DNA of 64,000 nt from Calditrichia bacterium (GCA_020634975.1 JACKAQ010000001.1:1774857-1838856); one strand, 5' to 3'; positions 46,021-63,937 are shown, numbered from the stretch's first letter. Made by a program: numbers and translations. The notes: a model not told the origin generated them from the letters alone.

Positions 46021-46797
46021 TTATTGGGGAAGATCGAGCTGCCAATTGCGCAGTTCGGCGAGAAAACGATATTGGGTTAAATCCAGATGCAGCGGCGTTA
46101 CCGCCACATATTGGCGGGAGATGGCGACTTCGTCCACGTCGTCGTCGGTATCGAGCACCAGTTTTTTGCCACCCAGCCAGTAGTAGGTGCGGTTGGTGAG
46201 ATCGGTGCGTTTTTCAAAAAATTCCTCAAACCTGCCGCGCCCCTGCCGGGTAATTTTGATACCTTTGATTTCCGAAAGCGGCAATGCGGGAATGTTTACG
46301 CTGAGCAACGTATCTTCCGGTATTCCATTTTTTAAAGCAGCATCCGCCAACACTTTTGCCACTTCCGCGGCACCGGAAAAATCGCGGTTGGTGAAGCTGG
46401 TGAGGGAAAAAGCAATGGATGGAATGCCCATTATCGCGCCTTCGGTTGCGGCGGAAACTGTCCCGGAATAAATGACATTTACGGCGGCGTTACTGCCCTG
46501 ATTGATGCCGGAAACGACCAAATCCGGTTTGAATTCCAGAATGCCTTTTACGCCCAATTTTACGCAATCTGCGGGTGTGCCGTTCACCGACCATCCGAAA
46601 AATTCGCCGTGGCGTTCCACTTTTGCGACCCGCAGCGGATCAGACAGTGTGATCGCATGCCCAACCGCGCTTTTCTCGGAATCGGGTGCAACCACGTATG
46701 GCTCGCCGATGCTTTTCATGGCATTGCACAACGCCCAAATACCGTGAGAAAAAATGCCGTCGTCGTTGGTCACCAGAATTTTTGGGCGTTCGCTCAT
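46021..46797 (-). CDS. surE: 5'/3'-nucleotidase SurE
   Basis: Begins ILVTNDDGIFSHGI and is colinear with SurE over 258 aa. Confidence 0.9.
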   Translation of the reverse strand: MSERPKILVTNDDGIFSHGIWALCNAMKSIGEPYVVAPDSEKSAVGHAITLSDPLRVAKVERHGEFFGWSVNGTPADCVKLGVKGILEFKPDLVVSGINQGSNAAVNVIYSGTVSAATEGAIMGIPSIAFSLTSFTNRDFSGAAEVAKVLADAALKNGIPEDTLLSVNIPALPLSEIKGIKITRQGRGRFEEFFEKRTDLTNRTYYWLGGKKLVLDTDDDVDEVAISRQYVAVTPLHLDLTQYRFLAELRNWQLDLPQ

Positions 46798-46812
46798 GAA
46801 AATACAGCTCCG

Positions 46813-47757
46813 TTATTTTCCGTTTTTGGCAGTCGTTCGAGTGGTTTTGGCAGGCGTTTTTGGCGTTTCTGCAGCAACATCTGTTTTGGATTGGTTGTTG
46901 GTCATCGGTTCATCCGTGGGTAGCGGCCAAAGCAAACGGAGCAAACGGGCAAGAGTTTCGCGCATCTCGTGGCGATGAACAATCATATCGATAAACCCGT
47001 GTTCCTGAACAAATTCCGCGGTCTGGAAACCGTCCGGCAAATCCTGTCCGATGGTTTGTTTGATCACCCGCTGCCCGGCAAAACCGATCAGCGCGCCGGG
47101 TTCAGCAATTTGCACATCGCCGAGCATGGCAAAACTGGCGGTTGTTCCGCCGGTTGTCGGATCGGTTAAAATGGCGATAAACGGCACGCCGGCATCTTCC
47201 AGCTGCGCCAGCTTTGCGCTGGTTTTCGCCAATTGCATCAGCGAGAGTGCGCTTTCCATCATTCGCGCACCGCCGGATGCGGAAATGATGAGCAACGGAT
47301 GGCGTTTTTCCCGGGCGATATCGGTTGCACGGGCAATTTTTTCGCCAACAACCGACCCCATACTCCCGCCGATAAACGAGAAATCCATGATTGCCGCAAT
47401 CACCGGCTGTCCTTCGATAGTGGCAGAACCCGTGACAACAGCGTCGTTTAATCCGGTTGCTTTTTGGGCGGCTTTCAGCCGGTCGGTATATTTTTTGGAA
47501 TCCTTGAATTTCAGCGGATCAACGGATTTGATGTGCCCGTTGACTTCTTTGAAGCTTTTTTCATCAAAATAAAACTCGATAAATTCTTTACTGGTGATGC
47601 GAAAATGGTTGTCACATTTGGGGCAAACGAACATGCGTTTCTGTAATTCCGCACGATAAATGATTTCGCCGCAGTTTTCGCATTTTACCCATAAACCATC
47701 TGGTATGGTTTTTTTTTCGCCGGTGTCGATGCCTTTTTTTCGTTTGAACCAATCCAT
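46813..47757 (-). CDS. accD: acetyl-CoA carboxylase carboxyltransferase subunit beta
   Basis: N-terminal Zn-ribbon (CENCGEIIYRAELQKRMFVCPKCDNH) plus a carboxyltransferase domain. It carries a Lys/Thr-rich C-terminal tail. Confidence 0.9.
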   Translation of the reverse strand: MDWFKRKKGIDTGEKKTIPDGLWVKCENCGEIIYRAELQKRMFVCPKCDNHFRITSKEFIEFYFDEKSFKEVNGHIKSVDPLKFKDSKKYTDRLKAAQKATGLNDAVVTGSATIEGQPVIAAIMDFSFIGGSMGSVVGEKIARATDIAREKRHPLLIISASGGARMMESALSLMQLAKTSAKLAQLEDAGVPFIAILTDPTTGGTTASFAMLGDVQIAEPGALIGFAGQRVIKQTIGQDLPDGFQTAEFVQEHGFIDMIVHRHEMRETLARLLRLLWPLPTDEPMTNNQSKTDVAAETPKTPAKTTRTTAKNGK

Positions 47758-47855
47758 TATTGCACTCCCGATTTATACATCGTTTAAAATACGCACTGAA
47801 AGCGACAATGTAAACTAAAAAAAATGACGTCCTTAATATATTGATTTAAATAAAC

Positions 47856-48449
47856 TTACCAAAATTTCGCATCGACCATCAGCAGCAGCGAAATGCCTGC
47901 CGCAGCGCCGGAAACGAATAAATTCCATTCGCGGTGTTGCGCGCGGAACACGTTCATAACCAGATATGCCGCACCCATCGTTACAGCAACAATCAGCAAT
48001 TGCCCGAGCTCCAACCCGACGTTAAACGCGAACAGCGGTTGCAGCAAACTTTCCTCATCGCCGAGCAGCATCCGCAGATAATTGGAAAAACCCATACCGT
48101 GGATCAGCCCGAAAAACATTGCCAGTCCATAATTCCAGCTCATTTTCCGGCGCTCGGCCCGTTCAACGTGTTCAAAAATATTCAGAAATGCGGTCACAAA
48201 AATGGTCAGCGGGATGAGAAATTCCACGATATCGCCGGGAATGACAAAAACACCCAGCGTTGCCAGCGCCAACGTTAGCGAGTGACCGATCGTAAACGCG
48301 GTAACCAGCACCAGAATGTGTTTCCACTGCGCCGCACGATACACAGCACACAGCGCCACGATAAACAACATATGGTCGTATGCCGCCAGATCGGCGATGT
48401 GGTTGAATCCCAATTTCAGATAACTTTCAAATGTGGTCATATTTATCAA
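47856..48449 (-). CDS. HupE/UreJ-family metal (Ni/Co) transporter-like membrane protein
   Basis: HupE/UreJ conserved block (GFNHIADLAAYDHMLFIVAL) and 6 TM helices. The likely ATG is at 48440. Confidence 0.6.
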   Translation of the reverse strand: MINMTTFESYLKLGFNHIADLAAYDHMLFIVALCAVYRAAQWKHILVLVTAFTIGHSLTLALATLGVFVIPGDIVEFLIPLTIFVTAFLNIFEHVERAERRKMSWNYGLAMFFGLIHGMGFSNYLRMLLGDEESLLQPLFAFNVGLELGQLLIVAVTMGAAYLVMNVFRAQHREWNLFVSGAAAGISLLLMVDAKFW

Positions 48450-48480
48450 TTATAAAAGGTTAAGGATAAAGGAATATTGA

Positions 48481-49482
48481 TTACGCCTGCGGATCGACTT
48501 CTCCTGCGATGGGTTCGTGCAGCAATTTTTTCACCGTTTCCAACGCATTTGGATGGGTGCCCAACAGGTGCATCAGTTTCACAATTACGGCTTCCATTGT
48601 CATATCCTGCGCGCCGACGGCACCGGCTTCGGCGATCAATTTGCCGTTCTGGTAGCGTTGCAAATCCACAAATCCGTGGCGGCTCTGCGATGCGATCACC
48701 ACCAGTTTTCCGGCATCGGAGAGCGATTGCACCAACGGCACCAGCGATTTTTCCTGCGTGGCAACGTTGCCCAATCCCAACGCCTGAACCACAATCGCTT
48801 TCAGCGGGGAATCAATCATCCAACGCAAATATTCCGGATGCAGCCCCGGGAAAAAGGGCATCGCCAGCACTTCATCGGAAATGGCGGTGAGCAATTCCGG
48901 CTTTCCGGACGGTCGCAAACAATTGTCGTGCAGGGTAATTTCCAATCCCACATCCGCCAGCGGCGGATAATTGGGGCTGACAAACGCGCCGTAATCGATG
49001 CCGGAAACCTTTGCAGAACGATTGCCGCGCAACAGTTCCGTGCCGAAAAAAATGCTCACCTCAGGAATATCCCGCGTGGCCAGCTCTGCCGCGTTAATCA
49101 GGTTCATCCGGGCATCGGAGCGGATTTCCGCGAGCGGACGCTGCGATCCGGTGAGCACCACCGGTTTCGACAAATTGCGCAACATGTACGATAACGCCGC
49201 AGCAGTATAAATCATGGAATCCGTGCCGTGGATAACCACAAATCCGTCGTAATTGGGCAATTCATCAAAAATAAGCGTGGCAAGCTGCTGCCAGTGGGTT
49301 GGGGTAATATTGGCGCTATCCAGATTGAACAACGCCCGGAAATCGATTTCAGCGATCTGCCGCAACTCCGGAACAAACTGGGTGATGTTCGCCTGAACCT
49401 GATTGGGCGCCAGCGTTGGCGCGGGCTTCAACGGCACCATTCCGAATGTGCCGCCGGTATGTATGATGAGAATTTTTTTCAT
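48481..49482 (-). CDS. ansA: L-asparaginase (type I)
   Basis: N-terminal threonine motif (ILIIHTGGTFGM) and a later block (VVIHGTDSM). The start is at 49482, and the 49530 upstream extension is unlikely. Confidence 0.85.
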   Translation of the reverse strand: MKKILIIHTGGTFGMVPLKPAPTLAPNQVQANITQFVPELRQIAEIDFRALFNLDSANITPTHWQQLATLIFDELPNYDGFVVIHGTDSMIYTAAALSYMLRNLSKPVVLTGSQRPLAEIRSDARMNLINAAELATRDIPEVSIFFGTELLRGNRSAKVSGIDYGAFVSPNYPPLADVGLEITLHDNCLRPSGKPELLTAISDEVLAMPFFPGLHPEYLRWMIDSPLKAIVVQALGLGNVATQEKSLVPLVQSLSDAGKLVVIASQSRHGFVDLQRYQNGKLIAEAGAVGAQDMTMEAVIVKLMHLLGTHPNALETVKKLLHEPIAGEVDPQA

Positions 49483-49611
49483 TTGGGCAACGATTTCAAA
49501 ACGATTTTGCCACAGAGTCACGGAGAACACAGAGAGGATATAAAATATTGATTTTTGGAACGTTGTGCACTCTGTGTCTCTGTGGCAATTTTTGTGTTTT
49601 ATGTTGGAAAA

Positions 49612-50922
49612 CTATAAAACGATGCCGCTCAACACACCGGCGATGGTCGCGGTCATCATTGTGGCGAGGGTGCCGCCGAGGACAGCGCGCAAACCGAATT
49701 TCGCCAAATCCGACCGGCGATCCGGCGCAATCCCGCCGATGCCGCCAATCTGTATTGCAATGGATGAAAAATTGGCGAATCCGCACAATGCGTAAGTGGC
49801 GATAAGTGTTGCTTTTTCAGATAGTTGTCCCGCAGGAATTTGCGATAATTCCAGATAAGCCACAAATTCGTTGATGATTACTTTTTGCCCGATCAACGAA
49901 CCGATCGTCACGGAATCGCCCCACGGCACACCGATCAGCCAGGCGATCGGGCTGAGCGCGTAGCCGATCAACACTTGCAGCGTAATCGGCTCACCGGCGA
50001 TGGTCAATCCCAATAGTTCGGTGAAAATGCCCTCAAAAATCCAGTTGACCATGGCAATCAGCGCGATGAACGCCAGCAGCATTCCCGCAACGTTCAACGC
50101 CAGCTTCAAACCGTCTGCCGCACCGCTGGCTGCCGCATCAATAATATTGGATGCGGTTTTTTCCACATGCACTTTTACTTCGCCCATGGTTTGGGAGGTT
50201 TCGGTTTCCGGCACCAGAACTTTGGCGATGACGATGGTTGCCGGCGCAGCCATAATACTGGCGGAAAGCAGGTGTTTCGCATAGAACAATTGCAGTTGCG
50301 GATCGCCGCCGCCGAGCAGACCAACGTATGCCGCCAGCACGCCGCCGGCGATCGTCGCCATCCCGCCGACCATCAGCGTCAACAGTTCCGATTGGGTCAT
50401 TGGCGACACATACGGGCGCACCACCAACGGCGCTTCTGTTTGCCCGATAAACACGTTCGCCGCAACGGAAATCGATTCCGCACCGCTGACGCGCATGGCT
50501 TTGGCCATCACCCACGCCATACCCTGCACCACTTTTTGCATCGCACCGAGGTGATACAAAACAGACATCAGCGAGGAAAAGAAAATGATCGTCGGCAGCA
50601 CCTGGAACGCGAAATAAAAGCCTTTGCTGCCATCTGCCAGATCACCAAAAATAAACATTGATCCTTCGTTGGTAAACGCAATCACTTTCACAAAAATAGT
50701 GCTGATGAAACTAAAAAAACGTGATCCCCAGGTGGTGAGAATAACAATTACGGCAAAGAGCAACTGCAGCCCGATACCGATTCCCACCAATCGCCAACTG
50801 ATGGCGCCGCGATTGTTGGAAAACAGCACGGCAATACCAACCAACACCGTTAATCCGAATAACCCAAATAGCATATCTGTTAACATAGCTGCTCCAGAAC
50901 TTGATTTGTCGATGACTGTCAC
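49612..50922 (-). CDS. nupC: NupC/CNT-family concentrative nucleoside transporter
   Basis: CNT N-terminal (LFGLFGLTVLVGIAVLFSNNR) and C-terminal nucleoside-binding hairpins. The likely start is at 50886. Confidence 0.85.
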   Translation of the reverse strand: MTVIDKSSSGAAMLTDMLFGLFGLTVLVGIAVLFSNNRGAISWRLVGIGIGLQLLFAVIVILTTWGSRFFSFISTIFVKVIAFTNEGSMFIFGDLADGSKGFYFAFQVLPTIIFFSSLMSVLYHLGAMQKVVQGMAWVMAKAMRVSGAESISVAANVFIGQTEAPLVVRPYVSPMTQSELLTLMVGGMATIAGGVLAAYVGLLGGGDPQLQLFYAKHLLSASIMAAPATIVIAKVLVPETETSQTMGEVKVHVEKTASNIIDAAASGAADGLKLALNVAGMLLAFIALIAMVNWIFEGIFTELLGLTIAGEPITLQVLIGYALSPIAWLIGVPWGDSVTIGSLIGQKVIINEFVAYLELSQIPAGQLSEKATLIATYALCGFANFSSIAIQIGGIGGIAPDRRSDLAKFGLRAVLGGTLATMMTATIAGVLSGIVL

Positions 50923-50979
50923 GGCAACAATTGGCAGAAAGCCGGCTAAAACCTGGCGATCACCCCGCGTTGTAAACGT

Positions 50980-51630
50980 CTATTTTTCAGTTGTTTCCGC
51001 AGATTTTTTATTCTCTTTTTTTGCTTCTGCCGGCGGCTCGAAACAGTTGCGGCAACGCGCTTCGTAAATATTCGTCGCGCCGACAACCACGCGGCTGGCA
51101 TCTTTGCTGGTTCGCTGGGTGAAGGATGCGGGATTGCCGCAGCTCACGCAAATTGCCTGCGTTTTGGTGATGTATTCCGCCATCGCCAGCAGTTGCGGAA
51201 TGGGCTCAAACGGCTCACCGCGATAGTCCATATCCAGCCCCGCGACGATCACGCGTTTGCCCATATTGGCCAATCGCTGGCATACTTCGATGAGCGTTGC
51301 ATCAAAAAATTGTGCTTCGTCGATGCCCACAACGTGGCTTTCCAACGCGTTTTCGAGAATTTCGGCGGGACTTTCAACCACCATCGAGGGAATCCGCTGT
51401 TCCGAATGCGACACAATGTGATCTTCGCTGTAGCGATTATCGATTTTCGGCTTAAAAATTGCCACTTTTTGCTTTGCGATGAGCGCCCGCCGCAACCGGC
51501 GAATCAGCTCTTCGGATTTGCCGCTGAACATGCAACCGCACACCACTTCTATCCACCCGACATTCCGCTGAATTATTGGAACCATTCCAAACTCCAAATT
51601 GAAACCCTTTGTTGATTCTTTATTCCACAA
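50980..51630 (-). CDS. tdk: thymidine kinase
   Basis: P-loop ([11 protein letters not shown]) and a C-terminal Zn ribbon ([13 protein letters not shown]...CRNC). The likely start is at 51585. Confidence 0.9.
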
Positions 51631-51862
51631 AGCCCAAAGATATTCATTCCCACCTAAAGAACAAACAGATTTTTTAAGCGAAAATTCCCGTTCGCGTTTG
51701 ATTAAACCGCTACCAGAAACCCAAAAAACAACTGAAAAGTTTGAATAATGTCCGCTAAAACTTGCCGGAATATCTATTTTAGGGTTATATTAAAAGATAA
51801 AATACGCAACACGTAAACGAACCGGGTTGCACATTGCAAAAGAAATATTTTCAGGGTGAGTT

Positions 51863-52582
51863 ATGATCCGGACACTGCTTTTTTTTATCGCGCTGGGTAT
51901 TAACACAACGATAGGCGGAATTGGCGTAATGGTGATCGGATTGTTTCAGCGGCATTCCAAAATTGCGCTGGAATGGATTATGAAACCCTGGGCGAAAGCC
52001 CTGGTATGGATCGCCGGGATAAAGCTGACGGTAGAAGGCGTGGAAAATGTGGATTTCCGGCAATCGTATATCGTGCTGAGCAATCACCAAAGCCATATGG
52101 ATATTCCCGTGCTGCTGGCGGCAATGCCCAATCATTTCACCTTTATCGCCAAAAAAGAGCTGTTCCGGATTCCCATTTTTGCCCAGGCAATGCGCGGATT
52201 CGGTATTCTGGAAATCGATCGCAGCAACCGCAACCGGGCGATTGCCACGCTAAAAGACGCGGCGCAAATTGCCAAATCCAAAAACATCTCCATTTTGGCA
52301 TTCCCGGAAGGCACCCGCAGCGAGGACGGGCAGTTGAAGCCGTTCAAGAAAGGGCCGTTTATGCTGGCGCTGGATGCCCGTTTGCCGGTGTTGCCGGTGT
52401 CGATCAGCGGCACTTTTCCCATTTTGCCCAAAGGAAAATTGCTCATTCGCGGCGGGCAGCAGGTTCGGGTAACCATTCACCCGCCGGTAATTGTGGAAAA
52501 TGCCAGTTACGAAAGCCGTGAACAATTAATGGACGAAACCTACCAGCGAGTAGCCTCGGGATTTATGCAATATGAATCATGA
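51863..52582 (+). CDS. plsC: 1-acyl-sn-glycerol-3-phosphate acyltransferase
   Basis: LPLAT motifs (NHQSHMD, FPEGTRS). Its end overlaps the upp start by 11 bp. Confidence 0.85.
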   Translation: MIRTLLFFIALGINTTIGGIGVMVIGLFQRHSKIALEWIMKPWAKALVWIAGIKLTVEGVENVDFRQSYIVLSNHQSHMDIPVLLAAMPNHFTFIAKKELFRIPIFAQAMRGFGILEIDRSNRNRAIATLKDAAQIAKSKNISILAFPEGTRSEDGQLKPFKKGPFMLALDARLPVLPVSISGTFPILPKGKLLIRGGQQVRVTIHPPVIVENASYESREQLMDETYQRVASGFMQYES

Positions 52583-53207
52583 TTTCAAAAATTTGACAGT
52601 GGTGGATCACCCGCTGATCGCCGACAAACTCACCCGGCTCCGGTCGGTGGAAACACCGCATCACGAGTTCAAAATGCTGCTGGATGCCGTCAGCTCGCTG
52701 CTGTTTTACGAAGCCAGCCGCAATTTGGCGACCCAAAACCAGCGCATCCGCACACCGCTGGAGCAGGTGGAAATGCCGCGTTTGGCCGGCGATGTGCTGT
52801 TGGTGCCCATTTTGCGGGCAGGACTGGCGATGGTCAACGGCATCACGCCGATTTTGCCGGAGGTGATTGTCGGGATGATTGGCATGTATCGCGATCACGA
52901 TACGCTGCAGCCGGTGGATTATTATTTAAAATTGCCAAAAAACCTGGATCAAAAGCAGGTGTTTCTGGTCGATCCGATGCTGGCGACGGGCGGCAGCGCA
53001 TCCGATGCGCTGAAAAAGTTGCGGGAGCACGGCGCTAAAACCATCACAATGATTGCGCTGATTGCTGCGCCGGAGGGCGTAAAACGGGTGACGGAAGCTT
53101 TCCCGGATGTGCGGATTTTTGCCGCTGCGCTGGATCGCCAGTTGAATGAGATCGGTTACATTTTGCCCGGTCTCGGCGATGCGGGCGACCGTTATTTTGG
53201 CGTTTGA
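52572..53207 (+). CDS. upp: uracil phosphoribosyltransferase
   Basis: PRPP-binding motif (VFLVDPMLATGGS) and full UPRT colinearity. Confidence 0.9.
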   Translation: MNHDFKNLTVVDHPLIADKLTRLRSVETPHHEFKMLLDAVSSLLFYEASRNLATQNQRIRTPLEQVEMPRLAGDVLLVPILRAGLAMVNGITPILPEVIVGMIGMYRDHDTLQPVDYYLKLPKNLDQKQVFLVDPMLATGGSASDALKKLREHGAKTITMIALIAAPEGVKRVTEAFPDVRIFAAALDRQLNEIGYILPGLGDAGDRYFGV

Positions 53208-53296
53208 GAACCTGCTGTTTGGCGTGTTTCGAATCTCCGCGGCCACTCAACTGGATTTAACAGAAACTATCCACATTTTCAAAAATTTCCGAAAAC

Positions 53297-53330
53297 AAAA
53301 AGGCACGCAAATCTGCGTGCCTTTTTTCAT
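53297..53330. terminator. bidirectional intrinsic terminator between upp (+) and the TAXI gene (-)
   Basis: Stem ggcacgca / tgcgtgcc with loop aatc. It is flanked by A5 upstream and T6 downstream. Confidence 0.75.
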
Positions 53331-53374
53331 TGTGTTTTAATTTCGTTGCGAAGCCCGTGCTCCGCGATGCCGGT

Positions 53375-54400
53375 TTATTCGCTCGCTTCCGGCCAAATGC
53401 CGATTTCCTTAAAATAGCGGATCGCACCGGGATGGAACGGCGTGCCGGTATCGCGAATCACGTTTTTGGGGTTGATCGCCCGTCCCGCCGGATGCTGCTT
53501 TACTACCGCTTCCCGCTGTTCGTATAAAATTTTGGTGAATTGATACACCGTTTCTTCCGCCACATTTGCCGATGTAACCAAATGCATAGAACCCACGTTA
53601 AGCCCTTGATATTCATCAACTTGTCCGCGATAGGTTTCTGCCGGAATATTTGCCGCGTTGAAAAAGGGGTAATCCGCGATCAGCTTTTCCCGTGCCGCCG
53701 CGTCAAACGGAATGAAGACGATATCCTGCGTTGCGCATGCCTGCGTGATCGATGCTGTTGGCACCGCGCCGCCCAAAAATGCGGCAGCCGCGGAACCATC
53801 GGCGAGCATGTCCACTGCGCCGGCCTGCGTGTTGTTCAACGGCGTGAAATCGTCATATGTCAATCCGTGCGCCGCTAAAATCGGGCGGATAAAATATTCG
53901 AATCCCGCACCGGCGGGACCGACCACTACCCGCTTTCCGCGCAAATCTGCTATCGAATTGATATTATTGGACTTCGGTGCGATAAACAGCGCGATATTCG
54001 GCGCCAGCGTCATCACCGAACGGACGGTGTAGGCTTTCTCCCAATCGCCTTCGCCGCGCACTGCGAAATAGGAAATCGCTGCGTTGGCCATCGCAAAATC
54101 GAGTTCGCCGCGGTCCAGCCGCCGGATATTTTCCTGCGTGCCTTTGGTCGCTTCCGCGGAAATTTGCCAGCCTGATTCGCCGGCGTTATCGTTTACGGTT
54201 TGGGCAATCGCGCCGCCAACCACAAAAAATGCCCCGCCGGGCGGTGCCGTTCCCAAGCTCAAAAATTGCCGGTCGGCAGGTTTGGCGGATTGTTGTTCGG
54301 CATCGCCGCCACCGCCGCACGCCAAAAACAATCCCGCACCAACCAGCAAAACAACGCCGATTGCCGTGTATTTTCTGAAATTTCTGATCGAAAATTGCAT
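53375..54400 (-). CDS. TAXI-family TRAP transporter solute-binding protein, orphan (no DctQM nearby)
   Basis: Lipoprotein signal (LFLACGGGG) and the TAXI fold (FLSLGTAPPGGAFFVVGGAIA...FAMANAA...). Confidence 0.75.
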   Translation of the reverse strand: MQFSIRNFRKYTAIGVVLLVGAGLFLACGGGGDAEQQSAKPADRQFLSLGTAPPGGAFFVVGGAIAQTVNDNAGESGWQISAEATKGTQENIRRLDRGELDFAMANAAISYFAVRGEGDWEKAYTVRSVMTLAPNIALFIAPKSNNINSIADLRGKRVVVGPAGAGFEYFIRPILAAHGLTYDDFTPLNNTQAGAVDMLADGSAAAAFLGGAVPTASITQACATQDIVFIPFDAAAREKLIADYPFFNAANIPAETYRGQVDEYQGLNVGSMHLVTSANVAEETVYQFTKILYEQREAVVKQHPAGRAINPKNVIRDTGTPFHPGAIRYFKEIGIWPEASE

Positions 54401-54558
54401 GTATTTCCCCGTTATTTGATTGATTTTTTTCCGATTATTTCGCGCCTCGCCGACATTCGCTAACGCGAAAATATGCGAAATTGTTGTGCAAAGTTGAGAA
54501 ATTTTTATATTTAAAGCTAAAGATAGCGTAATTCATTCAATAAAAAAAGTGGACGGAT

Positions 54559-55623
54559 ATGCAGTTAAAATATGTTTTGGCGATTTGGGGACTGTTATTT
54601 TGTATCGCGGCGACCGCGAATGTACCGCAGAAAAAATGGATTGTCGGCACAAAGGAAGCAGCGCCGTTTTCCATGAAACAGCCGGACGGCAGTTGGCGCG
54701 GCATCAGCATCGACCTGTGGGAACAGATCGCCAAAAACGAAGGCTACACCTTTGAATATCGCGAAATGAGCCTCGAAGAAATGCTGCAGGGGCTGGAAAA
54801 CAACCAGATTGACCTCGCCGTTGCGGCACTGACCATCACACCGGATCGCGAAAAAGCGTTCGATTTCAGCCACGCGTTTTACAACACCGGGCTGAGCGTT
54901 GCGGTGCGCACAACCGGCGGAAACACCTACTGGCAGCTATTTTTGGGATTATTCTCCAAAGATTTTTTGCAAGTTGTTGCGGCGCTCGCGCTGTTGCTTT
55001 TTGCCGTAGGCGCGCTGGTTTGGCTGGTGGAACGCCGCCGCAATCCCGAACAATTTGGCGGCACGGCGATGCACGGGCTCGGCGCCGGTTTCTGGTGGTC
55101 GGCAGTCACGATGACCACCGTCGGCTATGGCGATAAAGCACCGGTCACCTTTTGGGGACGCATCCTCGGGCTGATCTGGATGTTTATGGCAATCATCATT
55201 ATTTCGAGCTTTACGGCGGGTATCGCATCTGCGTTAACGGTGAACCAGTTGCAATCGAACATCAACAGTGCGGATGATTTGCGGCATGTGAAAGTCGCTA
55301 CGGTGCGCGGCTCCACCAGCGAAAATTATCTGGTTCGCGATAACATCGGGCACCGCAGTTTTGACACGATCGGCAGTGCGCTGCAAGCCGTTGCCGACGG
55401 AACGGTGGACGCCGCCGTGTACGACGCGCCGATTCTGCGATACCTCGCCCAAAGCGAATATCAGGGATCGCTGAATGTGCTGCCGTTCACCTTCTCCCGG
55501 CAGGATTACGGCATCGGGCTACCGGATAGCAGCGACCTGCGCGAGCCGCTCAACCGGGCGTTGCTTTCGGAAATCCGTCGCGAAGAGTGGGAGAATGTGC
55601 TGAAGCGCTATCTCGGGGAATAA
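54559..55623 (+). CDS. GluR0-type prokaryotic ionotropic glutamate-receptor-like K+ channel
   Basis: Signal peptide, a periplasmic-binding-protein S1 lobe, M1, a pore helix with K+ selectivity filter (TTVGYGD), M2, and an S2 lobe. Confidence 0.75.
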   Translation: MQLKYVLAIWGLLFCIAATANVPQKKWIVGTKEAAPFSMKQPDGSWRGISIDLWEQIAKNEGYTFEYREMSLEEMLQGLENNQIDLAVAALTITPDREKAFDFSHAFYNTGLSVAVRTTGGNTYWQLFLGLFSKDFLQVVAALALLLFAVGALVWLVERRRNPEQFGGTAMHGLGAGFWWSAVTMTTVGYGDKAPVTFWGRILGLIWMFMAIIIISSFTAGIASALTVNQLQSNINSADDLRHVKVATVRGSTSENYLVRDNIGHRSFDTIGSALQAVADGTVDAAVYDAPILRYLAQSEYQGSLNVLPFTFSRQDYGIGLPDSSDLREPLNRALLSEIRREEWENVLKRYLGE

Positions 55624-55744
55624 TATATGTTTAAAGAGTTAAATTACCACAACGTCGTAAAACGCGCTGTGGTAAATATTTTCCTGAACAAATTATTCAG
55701 AGATTCCTGCCTGCGCAGGAATGACACAACAATATGCTGAGCGA

Positions 55745-56038
55745 TTATTTCTCCAATAACTGATTCATCGCTTTAGCCAGTTTGAAATCGAATTCGGTGA
55801 GTCCGCCGGCGTCGTGCGTATCCAGATCGATCACCACTTTATTGTAAACATTAAACCATGCCGGGTGGTGATTTTGCTTTTCGGCGAGGATCGCTGCGCG
55901 AGTCATGAATCCGAATGCCGCCACAAAATCCGGGAACTGGATTTCCCGGTGCAGCTTGCCGTCGACAATTTTCCAACCGGGAATTTCACCCAACATTTTT
56001 TTTGCATCTGTCTCATTTATTTTTGTCCTGCTGGTCAT
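55745..56038 (-). CDS. pterin-4a-carbinolamine dehydratase (PCD/DCoH)
   Basis: PCD signature ([16 protein letters not shown]). A GGAGGAAAT Shine-Dalgarno precedes the ATG at 56038. Confidence 0.85.
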
Positions 56039-56239
56039 ATTTCCTCCTTTGGTTTGATTATTCAAGATATGTCGACCAATTGCAGTTGTCAACCGTTTGC
56101 CAAATCTCAAGTTTGCGAATCTTGCCTGTTTATGCTAAATTGTCACCGACCAACATCGGGAAGCGTTGACGGCACCTGCTGACAAATTGAAATTTTCTGG
56201 CTCACCTGCCGGAAAAACAGTTTACCATCCAATTTTTAT

Positions 56240-59200
56240 TTGGGGAAATTGATGCTGGGACAATCCATTCTCCATTACAACATCATCGAAAAGCTCGGCG
56301 AAGGCGGAATGGGCGTGGTGTATCTCGCTGAAGATACGCGGCTCGGGCGAAATGTTGCCATCAAATTTTTGCCGGATCATATTGCCAACGACAGCGAATC
56401 GCGGGAGCGGTTTGTCAACGAGGCAAAAGCAGCCGCTGCGCTCAATCACCCCAACATCGCCCAAATTTACGCCATCGAAAATAGCGAAGATGCACAATTT
56501 ATTGTGATGGAATATGTTGACGGTAACGAACTCATTGAGGCGATTCGTGAATCGCCCCTACATCCAGAGGTTGCCATCGACTACGCAAACCAAATTGCGA
56601 ACGGGTTGCATGCAGCACATGAAAAAGGCATTATTCATCGCGATATCAAACCGACGAACATCATGATTACCGGTGACGGGCAGGTGAAAATCATGGATTT
56701 CGGGCTGGCGAAAATGGCCGATGCCGCGCTGAAAACCCGCCAGGGCACAACACTCGGCACTTTCGCATACATGAGCCCGGAGCAGGCGCAGGGCATGACG
56801 GTCGATTATCGCACCGACATCTGGTCGCTGGGCGTGGTGTTTTATCAAATGATTGCCGGAAAAGCACCGTTCGAGGGCGATTACGAACAGGTGCTGATTT
56901 ACGCCATCCTCAACGAATCGCCGGAAAAACTCGCGGAAACGCGACCGGAAATTCCCGCCGAAATCGATGCGATTATCGAAAAAGCGCTCGCCAAAAATCC
57001 CGATGAACGCTTTGCGACGATGGCGGAAATGATCGCCGCGCTGAATGCGATTCAATCAAAACCAGGTAAAAGCGCAGGCGAAACAAAATTGCCCAAAGAA
57101 GATCCGCAGGCAGAGCAAATCGGGCCGTATAAAATTCGTCAGCAGATCGGCGAGGGCGGCATGGGCGAAGTGTATCTCGCGGAGCAAATCGCCCCGGTGC
57201 GCCGAAAAGTAGCGCTCAAAATCATCAAATTGGGGATGGACAGCAAACAAATTGTGGCGCGATTCGAAGCGGAACGGCAGGCGCTGGCAGTGATGGATCA
57301 TCCGAACATCGCCAAAGTTTTTGAAGCCGGAACCACCGACAAAGGTCGCCCATATTTTGTGATGGAATACGTTCCCGGCGTGCCGTTGAACACCTATTGC
57401 GATACGGAACGGCTTTCCACCAACGAACGGCTGGAGTTGTTCACCGCCATCTGCGGTGCCGTGCAGCATGCTCACCAAAAGGGCGTTATTCACCGCGATT
57501 TGAAGCCGTCGAACATCCTCGTTTCGCTGCAGGACGGCAAACCGGTGCCCAAAATTATCGATTTCGGCATCGCGAAAGCAATCCACACGCCGCTCACCGA
57601 CAGCACGTTGGTGACTGCCATCGGCGAGGTGGTGGGCACGCCCGCATACATGAGCCCGGAGCAACTGGAAAATTCCCAACTGGATATTGACACGCGATCG
57701 GATATTTATTCGCTCGGCGTGATACTGTTTGAATTGCTCGCCGGCGCGTTGCCCTTCGATTTCAGCGAATACCAAAAACCGGGCGATTCGCTGCAAAAAA
57801 TGATTCGCGAAACCGATCCGCCAACGCCCAGCAAACGGCTGCAAACCATCGGCGATGTGCGGGAAAAAATCGCCAGAAATCGCCGCACGGATGCCGGATC
57901 GCTGCACAAAAAGCTCGCGGGCGATCTCGACTGGATCACCGTGAAAGCGATGGAAAAAGATCGCAATCGCCGCTACGAGACCGCTAACGGTTTGGCGATG
58001 GACATCCGGCGATATTTGAATGACGAACCGGTTTTTGCGCGACCGCCGAGCGCAGGCTACCGTATTTCAAAATTTGTGCGGCGCAACCGATTGGCGGTGA
58101 TCGCTGCCGGCGTTGCCGTTTCAGGATTGCTGATCGGGTTCATTTTCGCAACAGCCGGATTTGTCCGCGCCACCAAAGCGGAGCAGAAAGCCTCCCGCGA
58201 AGCTGAATCTGCCCGGCAAGTCTCCAATTTTTTGATCGATCTGTTCAAAATTTCCGATCCCACCGAAGCCGTTGGCGACACGATTTCTGCGCGGCAATTG
58301 CTCGACCGCAGCGCCGAGCGCATCGGCGCAGAGCTCAAAAATGAGCCGGTAATTCAGGCGCGACTAATGCACACGATGGGCAAAGTATATTCGGAAATGG
58401 GGCTGTTCGGGCGATCCAAACCGCTGCTGGATTCCGCGCTGGCCAAACAGCGGGCGCTGCTCGACACCCAAAATCCGGAACTCGGCGCGACGCTGCACGA
58501 TCTCGGTTACACTTATTATCAGCTTGGCGAATTTGACAGTGCGCAGGTGCTGATGGAACAATCGCTGCAAATTTTCCGCGAAAACGGCAATCACGAAAAA
58601 GTGGTGCAAAATCTCCGGCAGCTCGGCGATGTCTGGGAGGAAAAAGGCGACCAGGAAAAGCAGCTCAACTATCATCAGGAATCTGTTGAATATGCTGAAC
58701 AAACCATCGGTAAAAATAATATTCAGTACGCGGAATCGGTGTCGAAACTCTCGTTTGCGCTGGCAAATCAGGGCAAATACGAGGCAGCGGAGCCGCTGGT
58801 TCGGGAAGCGTTGCGCATCGCCAAAGCGCAGGTCGGCGACGATCACTGGCTGACCAGCCGCATCAAAATTGATCTCGCGTGGTGGCTGCTGGATTTGAGC
58901 CGCAACGACGAAGCCGTCCAATTGTTCAACGAGGCGCTGGAAACATTCAAAAAAATATACGGGCCGGATCATCCGGAAACGGCCATCGCGATGAGCAATC
59001 TGGCGTCCACTTACACATCGCTCAATCGCCACGAAGATGCCATTGAACTGCACAAACAGGCAGTAACCATTTTCAAAAAACGCTACGGCAATGTGCATTA
59101 CGACGTGGCAACGGCGATGAACAATTACGGACGTTCGCTGGTGCTCAAAGGCGATTACGACGCTGCGGAAAAAGTGTTGTGGGAAGTGGTGTCCATTTAC

Positions 59201-59590
59201 GAAACGCTATATGGCAAAGACACGCCGCGACCGGCGGCAGCATACACCAATCTCGGTCGCGCTGCACTCGCAAAAAAGGATTTCCGGCGGGCTGAGGAAT
59301 ACCTCAAAAAAGCGGTGGCGATGTTTACCGAACTGGTTGGCGATGCGCATCCGGTGCTCAGCTATCCCATGTTTGAACTGGCGAAGCTGAAAACCGAAAC
59401 CGGCGATGTTGCGGCAGCGGAAGTGGTTTTCCGGCAGGTAATCGCGCTTCGCGAAGCGGCATTTGGCGAAGCCAACGAAGAAGTGCTGCAAGCCCAAACC
59501 GCTTATGCCGCGTTACTGCGGCAGATGAATCGCCCGGCAGCAGCAGATTCGGTAGTAAAACGGGTAGCAGAGATGTCGATTCAAAATTGA
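56240..59590 (+). CDS. Ser/Thr protein kinase with two tandem kinase domains, one TM helix and a C-terminal TPR array
   Basis: Kinase domain 1 is at roughly 56270-57050 (GEGGMGVVYLAED, HRDIKPTN, DFGLAK, YMSPEQ). Kinase domain 2 is at roughly 57120-57920 (GEGGMGEVYLAEQ, HRDLKPSN, DFGIAK, YMSPEQ). A TM helix lies at about 58090-58160, followed by about 400 aa of TPR-like repeats. Confidence 0.85.
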   Translation: MGKLMLGQSILHYNIIEKLGEGGMGVVYLAEDTRLGRNVAIKFLPDHIANDSESRERFVNEAKAAAALNHPNIAQIYAIENSEDAQFIVMEYVDGNELIEAIRESPLHPEVAIDYANQIANGLHAAHEKGIIHRDIKPTNIMITGDGQVKIMDFGLAKMADAALKTRQGTTLGTFAYMSPEQAQGMTVDYRTDIWSLGVVFYQMIAGKAPFEGDYEQVLIYAILNESPEKLAETRPEIPAEIDAIIEKALAKNPDERFATMAEMIAALNAIQSKPGKSAGETKLPKEDPQAEQIGPYKIRQQIGEGGMGEVYLAEQIAPVRRKVALKIIKLGMDSKQIVARFEAERQALAVMDHPNIAKVFEAGTTDKGRPYFVMEYVPGVPLNTYCDTERLSTNERLELFTAICGAVQHAHQKGVIHRDLKPSNILVSLQDGKPVPKIIDFGIAKAIHTPLTDSTLVTAIGEVVGTPAYMSPEQLENSQLDIDTRSDIYSLGVILFELLAGALPFDFSEYQKPGDSLQKMIRETDPPTPSKRLQTIGDVREKIARNRRTDAGSLHKKLAGDLDWITVKAMEKDRNRRYETANGLAMDIRRYLNDEPVFARPPSAGYRISKFVRRNRLAVIAAGVAVSGLLIGFIFATAGFVRATKAEQKASREAESARQVSNFLIDLFKISDPTEAVGDTISARQLLDRSAERIGAELKNEPVIQARLMHTMGKVYSEMGLFGRSKPLLDSALAKQRALLDTQNPELGATLHDLGYTYYQLGEFDSAQVLMEQSLQIFRENGNHEKVVQNLRQLGDVWEEKGDQEKQLNYHQESVEYAEQTIGKNNIQYAESVSKLSFALANQGKYEAAEPLVREALRIAKAQVGDDHWLTSRIKIDLAWWLLDLSRNDEAVQLFNEALETFKKIYGPDHPETAIAMSNLASTYTSLNRHEDAIELHKQAVTIFKKRYGNVHYDVATAMNNYGRSLVLKGDYDAAEKVLWEVVSIYETLYGKDTPRPAAAYTNLGRAALAKKDFRRAEEYLKKAVAMFTELVGDAHPVLSYPMFELAKLKTETGDVAAAEVVFRQVIALREAAFGEANEEVLQAQTAYAALLRQMNRPAAADSVVKRVAEMSIQN

Positions 59591-59612
59591 CCAACACATT
59601 GGAAACCAAGGT

Positions 59613-62050
59613 ATGATTGGTAAAAAAATTCTCCATTACAACATTGTCAAAAAGCTCGGCGAGGGCGGGATGGGCGTGGTGTATCTTGCCGAAGACACCC
59701 GGCTCGATCGACAAGTTGCCATCAAATTTCTGCCCGGTCACATCGCTACGGATACAGAAGCTCGGCAGCGATTCGAAATTGAGGCAAAAGCGGCGGCATC
59801 GCTGAATCATCCGAATATCGCCAACGATCCACGCTATCGAACATGCAGAAGAAGATGTGTTTATTTTGTCATGGAATACATCGACGGGCAGGCCGACGCC
59901 AAATGCATGAGATTGCCGGACTGGAACGGCTGCCCGGATCGAACGGCTGGAACTGATATCGCCATCCAGATTGCCAAAGGGTTGCAGGCAGCACGATGAA
60001 AAAGGGATTGTTCATCGCGATATCAAATCCGGCAATATCATGGTCACCGCTGACCGGCAGGTGCAAATTGATGGATTTCGGCATCGCGAAAGTTGGCACG
60101 CAGCAAAACTCACCCAGGTCGGCATCGACACTGGGCACGCCCGCATATATGTCGCCGGAACAGGCGCAGGGCGAACCGGTGGATCAGCGCAGCGATTTGT
60201 GGTCGCTGGGCGTTGTGCTGTACGAACTACTTATCGGCGAAATGCCGTTTGCAGGCGATTTCAGCGCAGGCGGTTATTTACGCGATTCTCAACGAAACAT
60301 TCGCGAGCCGGTCGATCAAAAACGGGCGGATGTGCCCCGGCGATTGCTGCAAATCTGTCCAGCGCAATTGAAAAGAAATGCTCCAAAAAATCCGGAAAAC
60401 CGCTATGCCAGCGCATCGATTGCTGGGCGAATTGCAACGTGCGGATCGGCAGGTGGATAGTATTTCCCGCTCTCAATGGATTCCATCCGCCGAAAAACCG
60501 GAAAAAATCGACCATCAACAAACAGGCGATTATCAGCACGCTTTTTATTTTTCCGTGTTTATTATCGCTGTGGTTTTATGGTCCCGCTTTACCGGACGAA
60601 CGTCCGACCTGCCAGATTATGCCCAACAGCTCAATTCCATTGCTGTGTTGCCGTTCGACGATCTCAGCCCGGAACAGGATCAGGAATATTTTTGCGCGAC
60701 AGCCGACCGAGGCGAAATTTTCACCAAACTTGCGCGATTGGGCGAACTGAAAGTGATTGCCCGGACATCCGTAATGCGCTATCGCAACAAAATTGTCTCC
60801 GAAAAAGCATTCGGGAAATTGGGGAGGAACTGGATGTGTCTACCGTGCTGGAAGGCAGCATTCGCAAACATGAGGATAACATCCGCGTGACCGCGCAGTT
60901 GATCCGCACGAATGACGAGTCGCATATCTGGGCGGAATCGTATGACAAAAACTCGATGATGTGTTTGACACTGCAGGATGATGTTGCCAAATCCATTGCA
61001 GAAGCCTTGCATGTGCAACTATCACCGAAAGCCATCGCCGCCATCGAGGAAAATAGCAAAAACAGGATACGCGCCTATACGAACTCGTGAAGCGCGGTAA
61101 CCACATGCTTTTCGCAGGAAAAGAAACAGAGAAAAGGCACTCGAATTTTATAAAACAACACTGGCAACCGATTCAACTTATGCACCGGCATCATCGGCAT
61201 TACTATGCGCTGGCATCACAAATGGGTGTTTAGCGGATTCCGGGACAGGGGTGCGCATCGCCGCAAGCTTGACTGGGCGGAAAAATCTATCCGGCTGGCG
61301 CCGGACAATCCCGATGCGCTCGCGGTTTTGGCGCATTCCTATCTGACTTCCGGCGTGAGCATTGATTCAACATACGCAGTGCTTTCAACAAGCGCTGGAC
61401 GCAAACCGAACAGCGAGGCGTTGCGCTGGAAGCTGCCGGATTTTTCTACATCAGCAGAATTGGTTTGTGGGACGCGGGGCTCAACTAATCGCCAAAAGCA
61501 GCCATTGATCCATTCGGGATGTAATATTTTCACCATCGCTGCGGCAATGTGCAATTATATCGACATTGGCGATGAACAACTACGGACGTTCGCTGGTGCT
61601 CAAAGGCGATTACGACGCTTGAGCAAAGTATTGTGGGAAGTGGTGTCCATTTACGAAACGCTTCTGGCGGTATTAACCGCGACGCGACCGGCGGCGGATA
61701 GCCAATCTCGGTCGCGCTGCACTCGCAAAAAAGATTTTCGGCGGGCTGAGGAATTGGCAAAAAAGCGGTGCCGATGTTTACGTTCTGGTTGGCGATGCGC
61801 ATCGCGGTGCTCAGCTATCCGGAAAATGAATTGGCGAAGCTGAAAAGGACGAAACCGGTTTATTTGCTGCAGATATGCCGGACGAGGCAGGTGATTGCGC
61901 TTCGCGAAAGCAGCATTCGGCGAATCCAACGAAGAGTGCTGTATCAATATCAAACACCGATTCCGCGTTGCTGCGGCAGATGAATCGCCCGGCAGCGATG
62001 ATCAACAACTTTTCGGCGGATACAGCAGTTTTCGGTGGAATAATTTCGAA
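59613..62050 (+). pseudogene. decayed paralog of the upstream Ser/Thr kinase (kinase domain + TM + TolB_N-like periplasmic domain + TPR remnant)
   Basis: The N-terminus is about 80% identical to kinase domain 1 (MIGKKILHYNIVKKLGEGGMGVVYLAEDTRLDRQVAIKFLP). It is then broken into at least 5 frames. A periplasmic-domain fragment (IAVLPFDDLSPEQDQEY...VIARTSVMRY...TAQLIRTNDESHIWAESYD) follows. The region 61560-62010 is a mutated copy of 59100-59560. Confidence 0.7.
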
Positions 62051-62105
62051 TTTTTTGACGATCAACATTCAGCGTTTAATTCCATAATTTACAGGAGCTT
62101 GATTG

Positions 62106-62501
62106 ATGAAAATCGACTTGATCACCATTTTGACGAATGACGCGCCAAAACTCAGCAAATTTTACCGTGATGTGCTCGGTTTTTCCGTGGCGCAAAATAC
62201 CGGAAAATATGTGGAATTGGCCAACGAATCCGTGCGATTTGCCATTTGCGAACGCCCGATAATGACGCAGGCAACCGGACACAAATCCTATCGCGAAAAG
62301 CCCGCCGGACAGTCGTTTGAGTTGGCATTTGTGCTGGATTCCCCGGCGGCGGTGGACGCCAAATATGATGAAATTATCGCCAACGGCGCAACGCCGGTAA
62401 AAGCGCCAGCAACCATGCCGTGGGGCATGCACACCGCGTTTTTCGCCGATCCGGACGGGAATATTCACGAGCTGTTTTGTCATCCGCAGGCGGAAAAATA
62501 A
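62106..62501 (+). CDS. VOC-family (glyoxalase/bleomycin-resistance-like) protein
   Basis: VOC fold (LSKFYRDVLGF...) in 131 aa. Its stop codon overlaps the next ATG. Confidence 0.65.
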   Translation: MKIDLITILTNDAPKLSKFYRDVLGFSVAQNTGKYVELANESVRFAICERPIMTQATGHKSYREKPAGQSFELAFVLDSPAAVDAKYDEIIANGATPVKAPATMPWGMHTAFFADPDGNIHELFCHPQAEK

Positions 62502-63378
62502 TGTTGCTCTATCAGGAAATTGTGCCGGACAAGCGGCTGGCAAATCACATTTTATCCTATTGGAAATTCGAATATCACCCGGATTCATCCGACGGAAAAC
62601 CGCCGGAAATGCTCGATCACACAGTGTTGCCGGACGGTTGTGTGTCGCTGGTATTTCATTATAATCAATATGTTAAGCAACGATTTTCTGTGCTGTTCAG
62701 GCGCGGATGCAGAATTATAACACACAGATGTATCCCGGCAGCGTGTTTGTGGGTGTGCGGTTTTTTCCCGGCGTTGTGGATGCACTGTTCGGTATCAGCG
62801 GCGCGGCGTTGCGCGATCAATCCATCGATGCGAGCACGATTTGCAGCAACCTCAATTTGGGCAAATTGCTGGAATGCATCTGCAAAAATTTCGACCAATA
62901 CGAGCTGTTCGACGAAGAATTGCTGCCATTCATCACCAAATTTGCCGGAAAACCGGACGAGCGGATTACCCGCGCCGTTTCGCTGATTGTCGCGGCAAAC
63001 GGCAACATCAAAATGGCGGATATCGCCGGAAAAGTGCACCTCAGTGAGCGGCAGTTGCAGCGCATTTTCCGCGAAAAAGTGGGGCTGACGCCCAAAGAAT
63101 TTGCACGGATTCGCCGCATCCGCACATCGCTGATCAAGATGGTGCTGGAAAACCGGGATTTGCAGGAGGTTATTCACAACGCGGGATATTTCGATCAGGC
63201 TCATTTTATCCGCGATTTCGGCGCAATTGCCGGCACCAATCCCACTTTGTTTAAAAAAATACATTTCGCAAATCGATCATCGCAACATTTCACCGCCCGA
63301 TGCACAGCGTTGATGTTGTCGTTTTTTACAATCATTTCTCGCCCGGAAAAGCTATTTTTTTTTACAAATAAAATTTAA
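62501..63378 (+). CDS. AraC-family transcriptional regulator (frameshifted near 62700)
   Basis: An N-terminal effector-like domain in one frame and a C-terminal AraC HTH in another (ITRAVSLIVAANGNIKMADIAGKVHLSERQLQRIFREKVGLTPKEFARIRRI...DLQEVIHNAGYFDQAHFIRDF). Confidence 0.6.
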
Positions 63379-63388
63379 GGAGACAGAT

Positions 63389-63937
63389 ATGCCTGCTACT
63401 GATATTTCATGCCTCAAATCGCTGTTTTTCATTAGCTTAACAATGTCGTTATTTCTGTGTGCAAGCGTCGTTTCTGCACAGGAAGGGCCGTCCGAAAAAC
63501 ATGTGGCGGCAATGAAAAGCTCGATTTTTGATCGGGAAATGGAAAGGAATTGGCTGGCAAATGACGCCGCAAGGCGCCAAAGAAGATGCGATGGTCGAAG
63601 AAAATATCCGCCGAAACTGGACGGTTTGGTGCTGATGGTGGAAGGTGTCGGTAAACGAACGGACCCCGAAACCGGGAAAGAAATGATTGTGCACAATGCG
63701 CTCGGTCTGATGTCGTATGATCCGCATGGCGGCGGTTACAAAATGCAATCGCATTTATCGAACGGGCGATCCACCACCGCCGATGCCAAATTCAACGATG
63801 ATGGCTCATTTGTCTGGTGGTTCAAAACGCCGCAGGGCACCATTCGCTATACGATCAAACTGAACAGCGCCGATCAATGGCACGAAATCGGGGAGTTTTC
63901 CGCAGACGGCGAGAACTGGCGCCAATTTTTGAGATGA
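63389..63937 (+). CDS. secreted hypothetical protein
   Basis: Signal peptide (LFFISLTMSLFLCASVVSA). 182 aa with no domain recognised. A local frame error cannot be excluded. Confidence 0.35.
   Translation: MPATDISCLKSLFFISLTMSLFLCASVVSAQEGPSEKHVAAMKSSIFDREMERNWLANDAARRQRRCDGRRKYPPKLDGLVLMVEGVGKRTDPETGKEMIVHNALGLMSYDPHGGGYKMQSHLSNGRSTTADAKFNDDGSFVWWFKTPQGTIRYTIKLNSADQWHEIGEFSADGENWRQFLR

Follow-up and report, generated by a model that had tools for sequence, protein, structure and literature searches.

We analysed a 64,000-nucleotide stretch of DNA from a Calditrichia bacterium (GCA_020634975.1, JACKAQ010000001.1:1774857-1838856; hereafter the window), which carries on its plus strand a gene, TK (56252..59590), for a membrane protein with two Hanks-type kinase domains in tandem. 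TK is a real member of a recurring, uncharacterised bacterial membrane kinase layout. The region that follows it (59613-62070) had been described in an initial annotation as a decayed partial duplicate of TK. Sequence comparison indicates that it is instead the locus of a separate receptor kinase gene, here called K2. The broken form in which K2 appears in the window is probably a collapsed multi-strain consensus, produced when a long-read metagenome assembly passed over a structurally polymorphic locus. All features described below lie on the plus strand unless stated otherwise.

The tandem-kinase receptor TK

The open reading frame (ORF) of TK spans 56240-59590 and has 1116 codons if counted from a TTG at 56240. 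This span had been taken as the gene. The ORF is indeed open throughout, but the start was placed too early: all TK orthologs (P0001; P0414 at 100% identity) begin at the ATG at 56252, four codons after the TTG. Counted from this ATG, the protein has 1112 residues and equals MCB9067631.1, and the gene assignment is based on the ORF, Pfam matches and orthologs. A Pfam scan detects two Pkinase stretches (whole-protein E-value 1.7e-107; Pkinase score 359 bits, cut-off 31.7) and, for each of the tetratricopeptide repeat (TPR) families TPR_12 and TPR_10, six stretches. The limits of the kinase domains given by phmmer are residues 5-266 and 287-596. Catalytic residues are numbered here in the 1112-residue protein, and those of the transmembrane (TM) helix in the 1116-residue ORF.

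Kinase domain 1 (K1, 56264..57049) belongs to the clade of the kinase-TM-FlgO/TPR family and has the catalytic set G16xGG, K38, E57, H129-R130-D131, N136, D149-F150-G151 and S175-P176-E177. It is followed by an inter-kinase linker (57050..57109) that is unconserved in a 19-member family alignment and is predicted to be disordered (predicted local distance difference test, pLDDT, below 50 at model residues 269-286). Kinase domain 2 (Kb), together with a C-terminal helical extension and a juxtamembrane motif (ARPPS..YR..KF.RR), occupies 57110..58039, and its catalytic set is G300xGG, K323, E341, H414-R415-D416, N421, D437-F438-G439 and S468-P469-E470. Both sets are invariant in the 19 family members. 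The VAIK lysine and the HRD and DFG aspartates are thus kept in both domains, neither of which is a pseudokinase by these residues. The sole hydrophobic peak of the protein, at residues 618-640 (58091..58159), reaches a Kyte-Doolittle maximum of 2.54 at residues 618-636, has a basic N-terminal flank (RISKFVRRNR) and is assigned as a single TM helix. Pfam TPR matches from residues 751 to 1111 mark a TPR_12/TPR_10-type array at 58490..59572. We infer that this array is extracytoplasmic because the kinase domains must be cytoplasmic. One TM helix after the kinase region and then a repeat domain is the layout of receptor-type bacterial serine/threonine kinases (STKs), and TK has it. Pfam matches, hydropathy and the invariant catalytic sets together bear out the architecture first proposed, in which one polypeptide carries two complete Hanks-type kinase domains, a TM helix and a TPR array.

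An AlphaFold2 model of TK (pLDDT 79.8) contains two confidently folded bilobal kinase domains joined by a disordered linker. The best PDB matches to this model found with Foldseek are PknB, PknS and Stk1, with E-values down to 5e-24, target TM-scores of 0.81-0.92 and 37-42% sequence identity.

TK recurs well beyond this contig. It is 100% identical to P0414 (MCB9067631.1), which is encoded on a contig of 3.54 Mb in an NCBI Calditrichia metagenome-assembled genome (MAG) with H6629_ locus tags; copies at 98.7-99.7% identity occur in 11 further assemblies, and the gene is present intact in more than 12 independent assemblies. Orthologs at 95-96% (L001 and L004-L006) lie in the Calditrichia chromosome OZ245730.1 (6.28 Mb) and in Logan assemblies, an ortholog at 65% (L002) is found in GCA_028284905.1, and the whole layout is common to proteins of about 1028 residues at 44-47% identity. 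The junction between K1 and Kb recurs in short-read, Logan and long-read assemblies, which rules out that TK arose from two genes collapsed in assembly, an artefact that had been raised as a possible objection to the tandem domains.

Tandem kinase domains of this kind had been called rare in bacteria. When we searched the literature for tandem or dual Hanks kinases of bacteria, only eukaryotic cases came up, and the text of an atlas of bacterial STKs that defines 42 families (10.1101/2025.01.12.632604) nowhere mentions tandem or dual kinase domains. The sequence data, however, call for a qualification of "rare". Two kinase domains are present in 23 of the 120 best TK homologs, and an exhaustive search with the two-kinase module as query found at least two in 46 of the 150 best 50%-identity cluster representatives. 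Nine of these multi-kinase representatives have the TK order of domain types, 25 pair two K1-type kinases and 10 have three to six domains. Four giant predicted proteins, P0122 (2573 residues), P0123 (2592), P0125 (2457) and P0130 (2510), were counted to have four to six K1-type kinase domains, against seven or eight matched stretches in the search output.

The two domains of TK have different affinities. K1 is 63% identical in amino acid sequence to the kinase domain of K2 and 48-71% identical to other kinases of the kinase-TM-FlgO/TPR family, and only 34% identical to Kb, which for its part shares 58-68% of its residues with a great many single-kinase receptor proteins. Because K1 resembles K2-family kinases and Kb resembles single-kinase receptors, TK reads as a K1-type kinase fused ahead of a complete receptor kinase of another clade (Kb, TM helix and TPR array). 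The fusion is old.

Two points weigh against this picture of TK. The relative orientation of K1 and Kb in the AlphaFold2 model is unreliable (predicted TM-score, pTM, 0.53). With this caveat on the inter-domain geometry, a comparison with the pseudokinase-kinase pair of TYK2 (4oli), made to look for JH2-JH1-like packing, gave a superposition over 615 columns at a root-mean-square deviation of only 21 Å. The gene neighbourhood is also unconserved among distant orthologs, the next gene encoding a STAS protein, a sigma-54 activator or a glyoxalase. The GAF/sigma-54 activator after the 65% ortholog (L002 13362-14876) and the STAS-domain protein after a 46% ortholog (L052/L053 9169-9522) are possible, non-conserved signalling partners. 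Two genes upstream of TK, in the window (54559-55623) and in all relatives, lies a gene for a GluR0-like prokaryotic ligand-gated potassium channel, with an SBP_bac_3 / Lig_chan-Glu_bd domain and an inserted Ion_trans_2 pore.

The separate kinase gene K2 and its locus

The contig L003 has a TK gene 99% identical to that of the window, followed by an identical 22-bp spacer and then by an intact kinase gene, K2, of 785 residues. The encoded protein has a Pkinase domain (residues 9-260), a TM helix, a FlgO-like module (331-425) and a TPR-like C-terminus. The spacer occupies 59591..59612 in the window and has no terminator-like site; promoter and terminator scans gave chance-level results only. 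The K2 protein is P0279 (MCB0264306.1/MCB0268159.1), part of a cluster with 17 members at 99.4-100% identity, and its next relative is only 50% identical. Among JGI metagenome contigs, K2 relatives were found at 30-70% identity and no close ortholog was detected. Intact K2 directly follows a 99%-identical TK in at least six independent assemblies, two of them NCBI MAGs. The possibility that L003 is a chimeric contig was rejected, since the same arrangement occurs in five further assemblies.

K2 is absent from L001, L004, L005 and L006, which carry the TK relatives at the 95% level. There, TK is followed by a 63-bp spacer and then by a glyoxalase gene. Since K2 is intact in some strains and absent from others, the locus is structurally polymorphic. 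The glyoxalase/VOC-family gene is intact in the window (62106..62501; Pfam), its exact protein also occurs in another MAG (MCB0266332.1), and it forms a right-hand anchor common to all haplotypes. The polymorphism has further correlates on either side. The last 13 codons of TK differ between K2-carrying strains (ending in SVVKRVAEMSIQN and a stop) and K2-less strains, as seen in window 59552-59590 against L001 13301-13336, and the divergence between K2-carrying and K2-less TK climbs over the last 600 bp of the gene, from 8% to 12% to 19% per 200 bp. To the right, L059 has intact K2 and a 131-residue glyoxalase, which is followed at once by an ORF at the place where other strains have the start of the AraC-family gene. 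L055-L057 lack the AraC gene and a 192-residue gene, and their glyoxalase (128 residues) abuts a deoxyhypusine-synthase gene.

Comparison with P0279 gives the identity of the region downstream of TK in the window. Positions 59613-61567 are collinear with P0279 residues 1-638, including the FlgO-like module (IAVLPF...AESYD) and the TPR-like region. The window copy differs from P0279 in having about 78% DNA identity, 24 frameshifts, 3 stop codons and no clean C-terminal 147 residues. The middle module had been described as TolB_N-like. This agrees with precomputed TolB_N/FlgO matches (PF04052/PF17680) and the JGI name "TolB-like protein" among K2 relatives, although the Pfam FlgO score falls just under the threshold of 22.6 bits both in the window (21.4) and in intact K2 (20.0).

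These relationships bear on the initial proposal that TK was duplicated in tandem, that domain shuffling exchanged the middle of the downstream copy for the TolB_N-like module and that this copy decayed. The proposal drew on real DNA similarity, far beyond chance, of the 5' part to K1 (72%) and of the 3' part to the TK tail (79%). The first of these values comes from a blastn match of 59628-60296 to 56267-56917; with 63% amino acid identity between K1 and the kinase domain of the intact homolog, it is the level expected of a paralog rather than of the close copy that had been claimed, and other members of the K2 family are closer to K1 (up to 71%). The similarity of the 5' end of K2 to K1 is ordinary paralogy in a family that is often found in tandem arrays. 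The 5' two thirds of the region are orthologous to P0279, a separate gene that is intact in at least six assemblies with its own TM, FlgO-like and TPR-like regions and C-terminus. No trace of Kb or of the TM/TPR body of TK is found downstream, and the tail does not derive from the adjacent TK tail (see below). We consider duplication of TK extremely improbable. Tandem arrays of two to five paralogous kinase-TM-FlgO/TolB_N-like-TPR genes were seen in other metagenome contigs (L026 3901-13715; L017; L015; L016; L023).

Origin of the broken copy

The region downstream of TK is broken, as first reported: 59613-62070 is split over all three reading frames. Relative to the intact ortholog, 59823-62022 has 36 frameshifting indels and 6 stop codons as disabling lesions. 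The damage begins at a sharp boundary. From 46252 to 59822, the window is about 99% identical to L003 with zero indels. This holds through the spacer and on into K2, in whose first 210 bp (59613..59822) 67 of 70 codons are the same as in the intact L003 gene and the other 3 are synonymous. At 59823, identity to L003 drops abruptly to about 78%.

The remainder of K2 up to residue 638 (59823..61567), comprising the rest of the kinase domain, the TM helix, the FlgO/TolB_N-like module and the TPR-like region in alignment to L003 K2, contains 28 indel events, of which 24 are frameshifting, and 3 stop codons. The indels lie mostly outside homopolymers and measure 1-13 bp. Mismatches to the intact gene in this K2 body are concentrated at third codon positions (18.9%, 13.8% and 39.3% at positions 1, 2 and 3), and the third-position excess occurs in every 50-codon bin, including residues 301-650 where TK has no homology. 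This bias along the body marks it as a real K2 allele that diverged under purifying selection. Plain long-read error was rejected as an explanation of the broken body on the strength of the same bias, which extends over its whole length. Decay in situ since the split from K2-intact strains was likewise rejected, given flanks that are 99% identical and a body that is about 78% identical. A cheap-gap realignment, intended to separate indel-type from substitution-type damage, turned each mismatch into a gap pair.

The last part of the region (61568..62070) has a different character. It had been described as a heavily mutated copy of the end of TK, and the similarity is genuine and far beyond chance: blastn aligns 61487-61996 to 59024-59541 at 79% identity with 34 gap positions (E-value 7e-111). 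High identity sets in at 61568; from there the region has a backbone like the TK 3' end and spacer of K2-less strains, interspersed with the 3' end of K2 itself. In the far 3' end of this tail and the adjoining spacer, 43 diagnostic sites are of the K2-less strain type, against 2 of the type of the adjacent gene. Over the TK-like blocks as a whole, 36 sites match the K2-less type (L006) and 16 the window's own TK, and the tail is equidistant to all TK alleles. Intragenomic gene conversion from the adjacent TK tail was rejected because the donor is of the K2-less strain type. Within 61568-62022 there are 12 frameshifts and 3 stop codons. The codon-position profile of mismatches is flat (20.8%, 18.0% and 22.3%), as is the mutation spectrum, and among the 54 codons that differ just 4 carry a synonymous change. 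Tail-specific differences are clustered (0 of 2000 shuffles) and leave six perfect runs of 34-55 bp.

The scrambled patches between these runs carry exact strings of the K2 3' end, ATATGCCGGACGA, TGTATCAATA, CCGATTCC and TCAACAACT (a 13-, 10-, 9- and 8-mer), in collinear order and at offsets of 46344-46355. Patches of the K2 3' end lie in register at 61662-61677, 61859-61885 and 61940-61962, and the TK blocks skip nearly the lengths replaced (13 to 16, 29 to 27 and 21 to 23 nt). Aligned with in-register K2, the tail patches score 20 and 17, where the control maxima are 13 and 12. A two-parent jumping alignment of the tail gains 17 after paying for eight switches, about 12 standard deviations over the null of 2.1 +/- 1.2. 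The two parents, the TK tail and the 3' end of K2, have no detectable homology to each other. The tail is thus a fine-scale, in-register mosaic of two unrelated sequences, and homologous gene conversion cannot explain the register because the parents lack homology.

One way to generate such a pattern naturally would be a single replication-based repair event, much as in microhomology-mediated break-induced replication, in which the template switched repeatedly between the two structural alleles while pairing in their common glyoxalase gene kept them in register. The in-register alternation between two non-homologous templates and the short switch points would be expected of this process, which leaves the frameshifts in the K2 body unexplained. 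We know of no precedent in bacteria for about eight in-register switches within 500 bp, and the pattern was seen once only, in a long-read MAG with other frameshift errors. Such an event seems very improbable to us.

The in-register mosaic, the sharp switch at 59823, the high local density of indels and the singleton status of the broken copy find their simplest account in a collapsed consensus. The broken K2 is deposited as three fragments (MCB9067632, MCB9067633 and MCB9067636), each of which occurs on one contig only among about 15 billion proteins. Its lesions recur in no second assembly in protein and JGI contig searches, and JGI metagenome contigs contain no match to a 32-mer that spans the breakpoint. 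With Flye-type assemblers of long-read metagenomes, related strains end up merged in consensus contigs (PMC8302730), and MAGs built from long reads are known to suffer from frameshifts (10.1101/2021.08.23.457338; PMC9262707). The 3.54 Mb contig implies that this MAG is a long-read assembly. Left of 59822/59823 the contig would then follow a haplotype that matches K2-carrying strains at 99% identity, and right of it a diverged K2 allele. A poorly covered strain would have contributed this allele, which serves as the backbone, and low coverage would be the probable source of its closely spaced small indels. In the final ~500 bp ahead of the glyoxalase gene, reads of K2-less strains, anchored in that gene, would pile onto the 3' end of K2 itself, and the pile-up would yield an in-register mosaic that resembles a decayed copy of the TK tail. 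The initial annotation had judged the indels too numerous and too non-homopolymeric for simple sequencing noise. This judgement is correct, but a consensus of mixed haplotypes is still compatible with such indels, and the mosaic points to it.

Several observations count against a collapsed consensus. The artefact is deduced from internal sequence evidence only, and the platform and pipeline of the MAG are likewise taken from the size of its contig rather than from documentation. Indels in the body are mostly non-homopolymeric, and insertions outnumber deletions (19 against 9), unlike both simple Nanopore error and the usual deletion bias of pseudogenes. With about 400 mismatches to 28 indels, the body does not show the ratio typical of raw long-read error, and a real diverged allele must therefore be assumed besides noise. 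The body holds a few in-register TK patches, one of which contains the odd 13-bp "insertion", and its blending signal in the two-parent jumping alignment is modest (a gain of 21 against 9.4 +/- 3.8). At the left edge (59591-59822) there is no blending, and no enrichment of blending in register with the TK stop codon was found there; the asymmetry with the blended right edge is unexplained.

An alternative is a real, strain-specific pseudogene with a recombinational history. A K2 allele of a diverged lineage would have been truncated at residue 638 and joined out of frame to the resident TK 3' end of K2-less type, by homology-facilitated illegitimate recombination or by deletion, and would then have decayed; a later homologous exchange with a K2-intact strain would have refreshed the sequence left of 59822. 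The junction is indeed out of frame at a 5-bp microhomology (GGCGA), the 3' end of the tail and the spacer are collinear with the K2-less haplotype, and the locus is demonstrably polymorphic among strains. The flat codon-position profile of the tail and the variable size and non-homopolymeric nature of the indels also agree with this history, as does the upstream 13 kb of the contig, which is base-perfect relative to an independent assembly. The scenario needs at least three successive events, however, and the in-register patches of the K2 3' end inside the tail are unexplained by it, since the two sequences share no homology. Clustered differences, a flat spectrum and 4 synonymous changes in 54 codons are unlike decay by point mutation, the K2 body retains selection-type divergence despite 24 frameshifts, and the broken copy is found in no second assembly. 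We regard a real pseudogene as possible but doubtful, and a collapsed consensus as the probable origin of the broken K2. If so, a collapsed multi-strain consensus in a long-read MAG can mimic gene duplication, domain shuffling and pseudogene decay, and an in-register two-parent mosaic test can reveal such collapsed regions without access to reads.

Ordinary genes elsewhere in the window also have sporadic single-base frameshifts, which add to the case for an assembly artefact. An acyl-CoA dehydrogenase gene on the minus strand (25977-27091) is split near 26400 into two ORFs, one for the N-terminal and middle domains and one for the C-terminal domain, by loss of a C in GGCGGC[C]GCATC, probably an assembly error in a housekeeping gene. 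A YfhO-family membrane protein gene (27531-30072) is split into two overlapping ORFs near 28900 at a T4G4 run. To the right of the glyoxalase gene, an AraC-family regulator gene (DUF6597 and HTH_18; 62498..63378) has lost one base at 62702 (GGGC[C]GCGG) and has A7 changed to A8 at 63253, and is thereby split; all 8 other members of its cluster (seven of 270 residues, one of 234) are longer than the 223-residue fragment of the window. The gene at 63389-63937 has indels of -2, -1 and -1 relative to L001. The AraC and dehydrogenase lesions share the GGC[C]GC context, which suggests that basecalling erred systematically, perhaps at a methylated motif of the GGCC type.

Proposed mechanism and comparison with known systems

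The domain layout of TK, its complete catalytic sets and the conservation of both are observed, and they suggest how the protein may work. Its kinase activity, topology and any relay are inferred. The TPR array outside the membrane could bind a ligand or partner and thereby change the oligomeric state of TK. Autophosphorylation of the PknB-like domains on their threonine-rich activation loops would follow. K1, the additional kinase at the N-terminus, might provide a built-in second output, or might be an activator or substrate of Kb, in which case TK would form a kinase relay in one polypeptide. No substrate or partner genes of the FHA or PP2C type were found near TK. More specifically, TK might be a self-contained relay of two active Hanks domains from different clades, conserved together across distant lineages, in which one phosphorylates and activates the other; it would then be an instance of a wider, undescribed habit of K1-type kinases to form polypeptides with 2-6 such domains. 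We put this forward as an unlikely but testable idea.

Bacterial proteins with at least two catalytically complete Hanks-type domains are not one-offs, as they form many sequence clusters in metagenomic data. Two kinase clades conserved together in one receptor make TK a candidate in which an intramolecular kinase cascade can be sought in bacteria. The relay, if true, would be a bacterial counterpart of RSK/MSK.

Among characterised bacterial kinases, TK is closest to Mycobacterium tuberculosis PknB/PknA, Staphylococcus aureus Stk1 and Xanthomonas citri PknS, whose fold and catalytic motifs are those of each TK domain (37-42% identity and TM-scores of 0.8-0.9 per domain). PknB-type kinases share with TK an N-terminal cytoplasmic kinase, a juxtamembrane segment, a single TM helix and an extracytoplasmic repeat domain. 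They differ from it in having one kinase domain per chain instead of two, and PASTA or other domains where TK has a TPR sensor. In the STK atlas, TPR is the one accessory domain common to several families, and the TPR-containing families PknG, Myxo1, GN-NS1 and Strep1/2 have, like TK, a kinase followed by C-terminal TPR repeats (10.1101/2025.01.12.632604).

Two protein-kinase domains per polypeptide are also found in RSK/MSK, JAK/TYK2, plant tandem kinase proteins (TKPs) and obscurin/SPEG, eukaryotic proteins whose origin is unrelated to that of TK. JAKs and most plant TKPs combine a kinase with a pseudokinase, whereas both TK domains have the full catalytic set. In RSK/MSK both domains are active and one activates the other, which makes these kinases the closest functional analogy to TK. 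Unlike the eukaryotic two-kinase proteins, TK has a membrane anchor and a TPR ectodomain.

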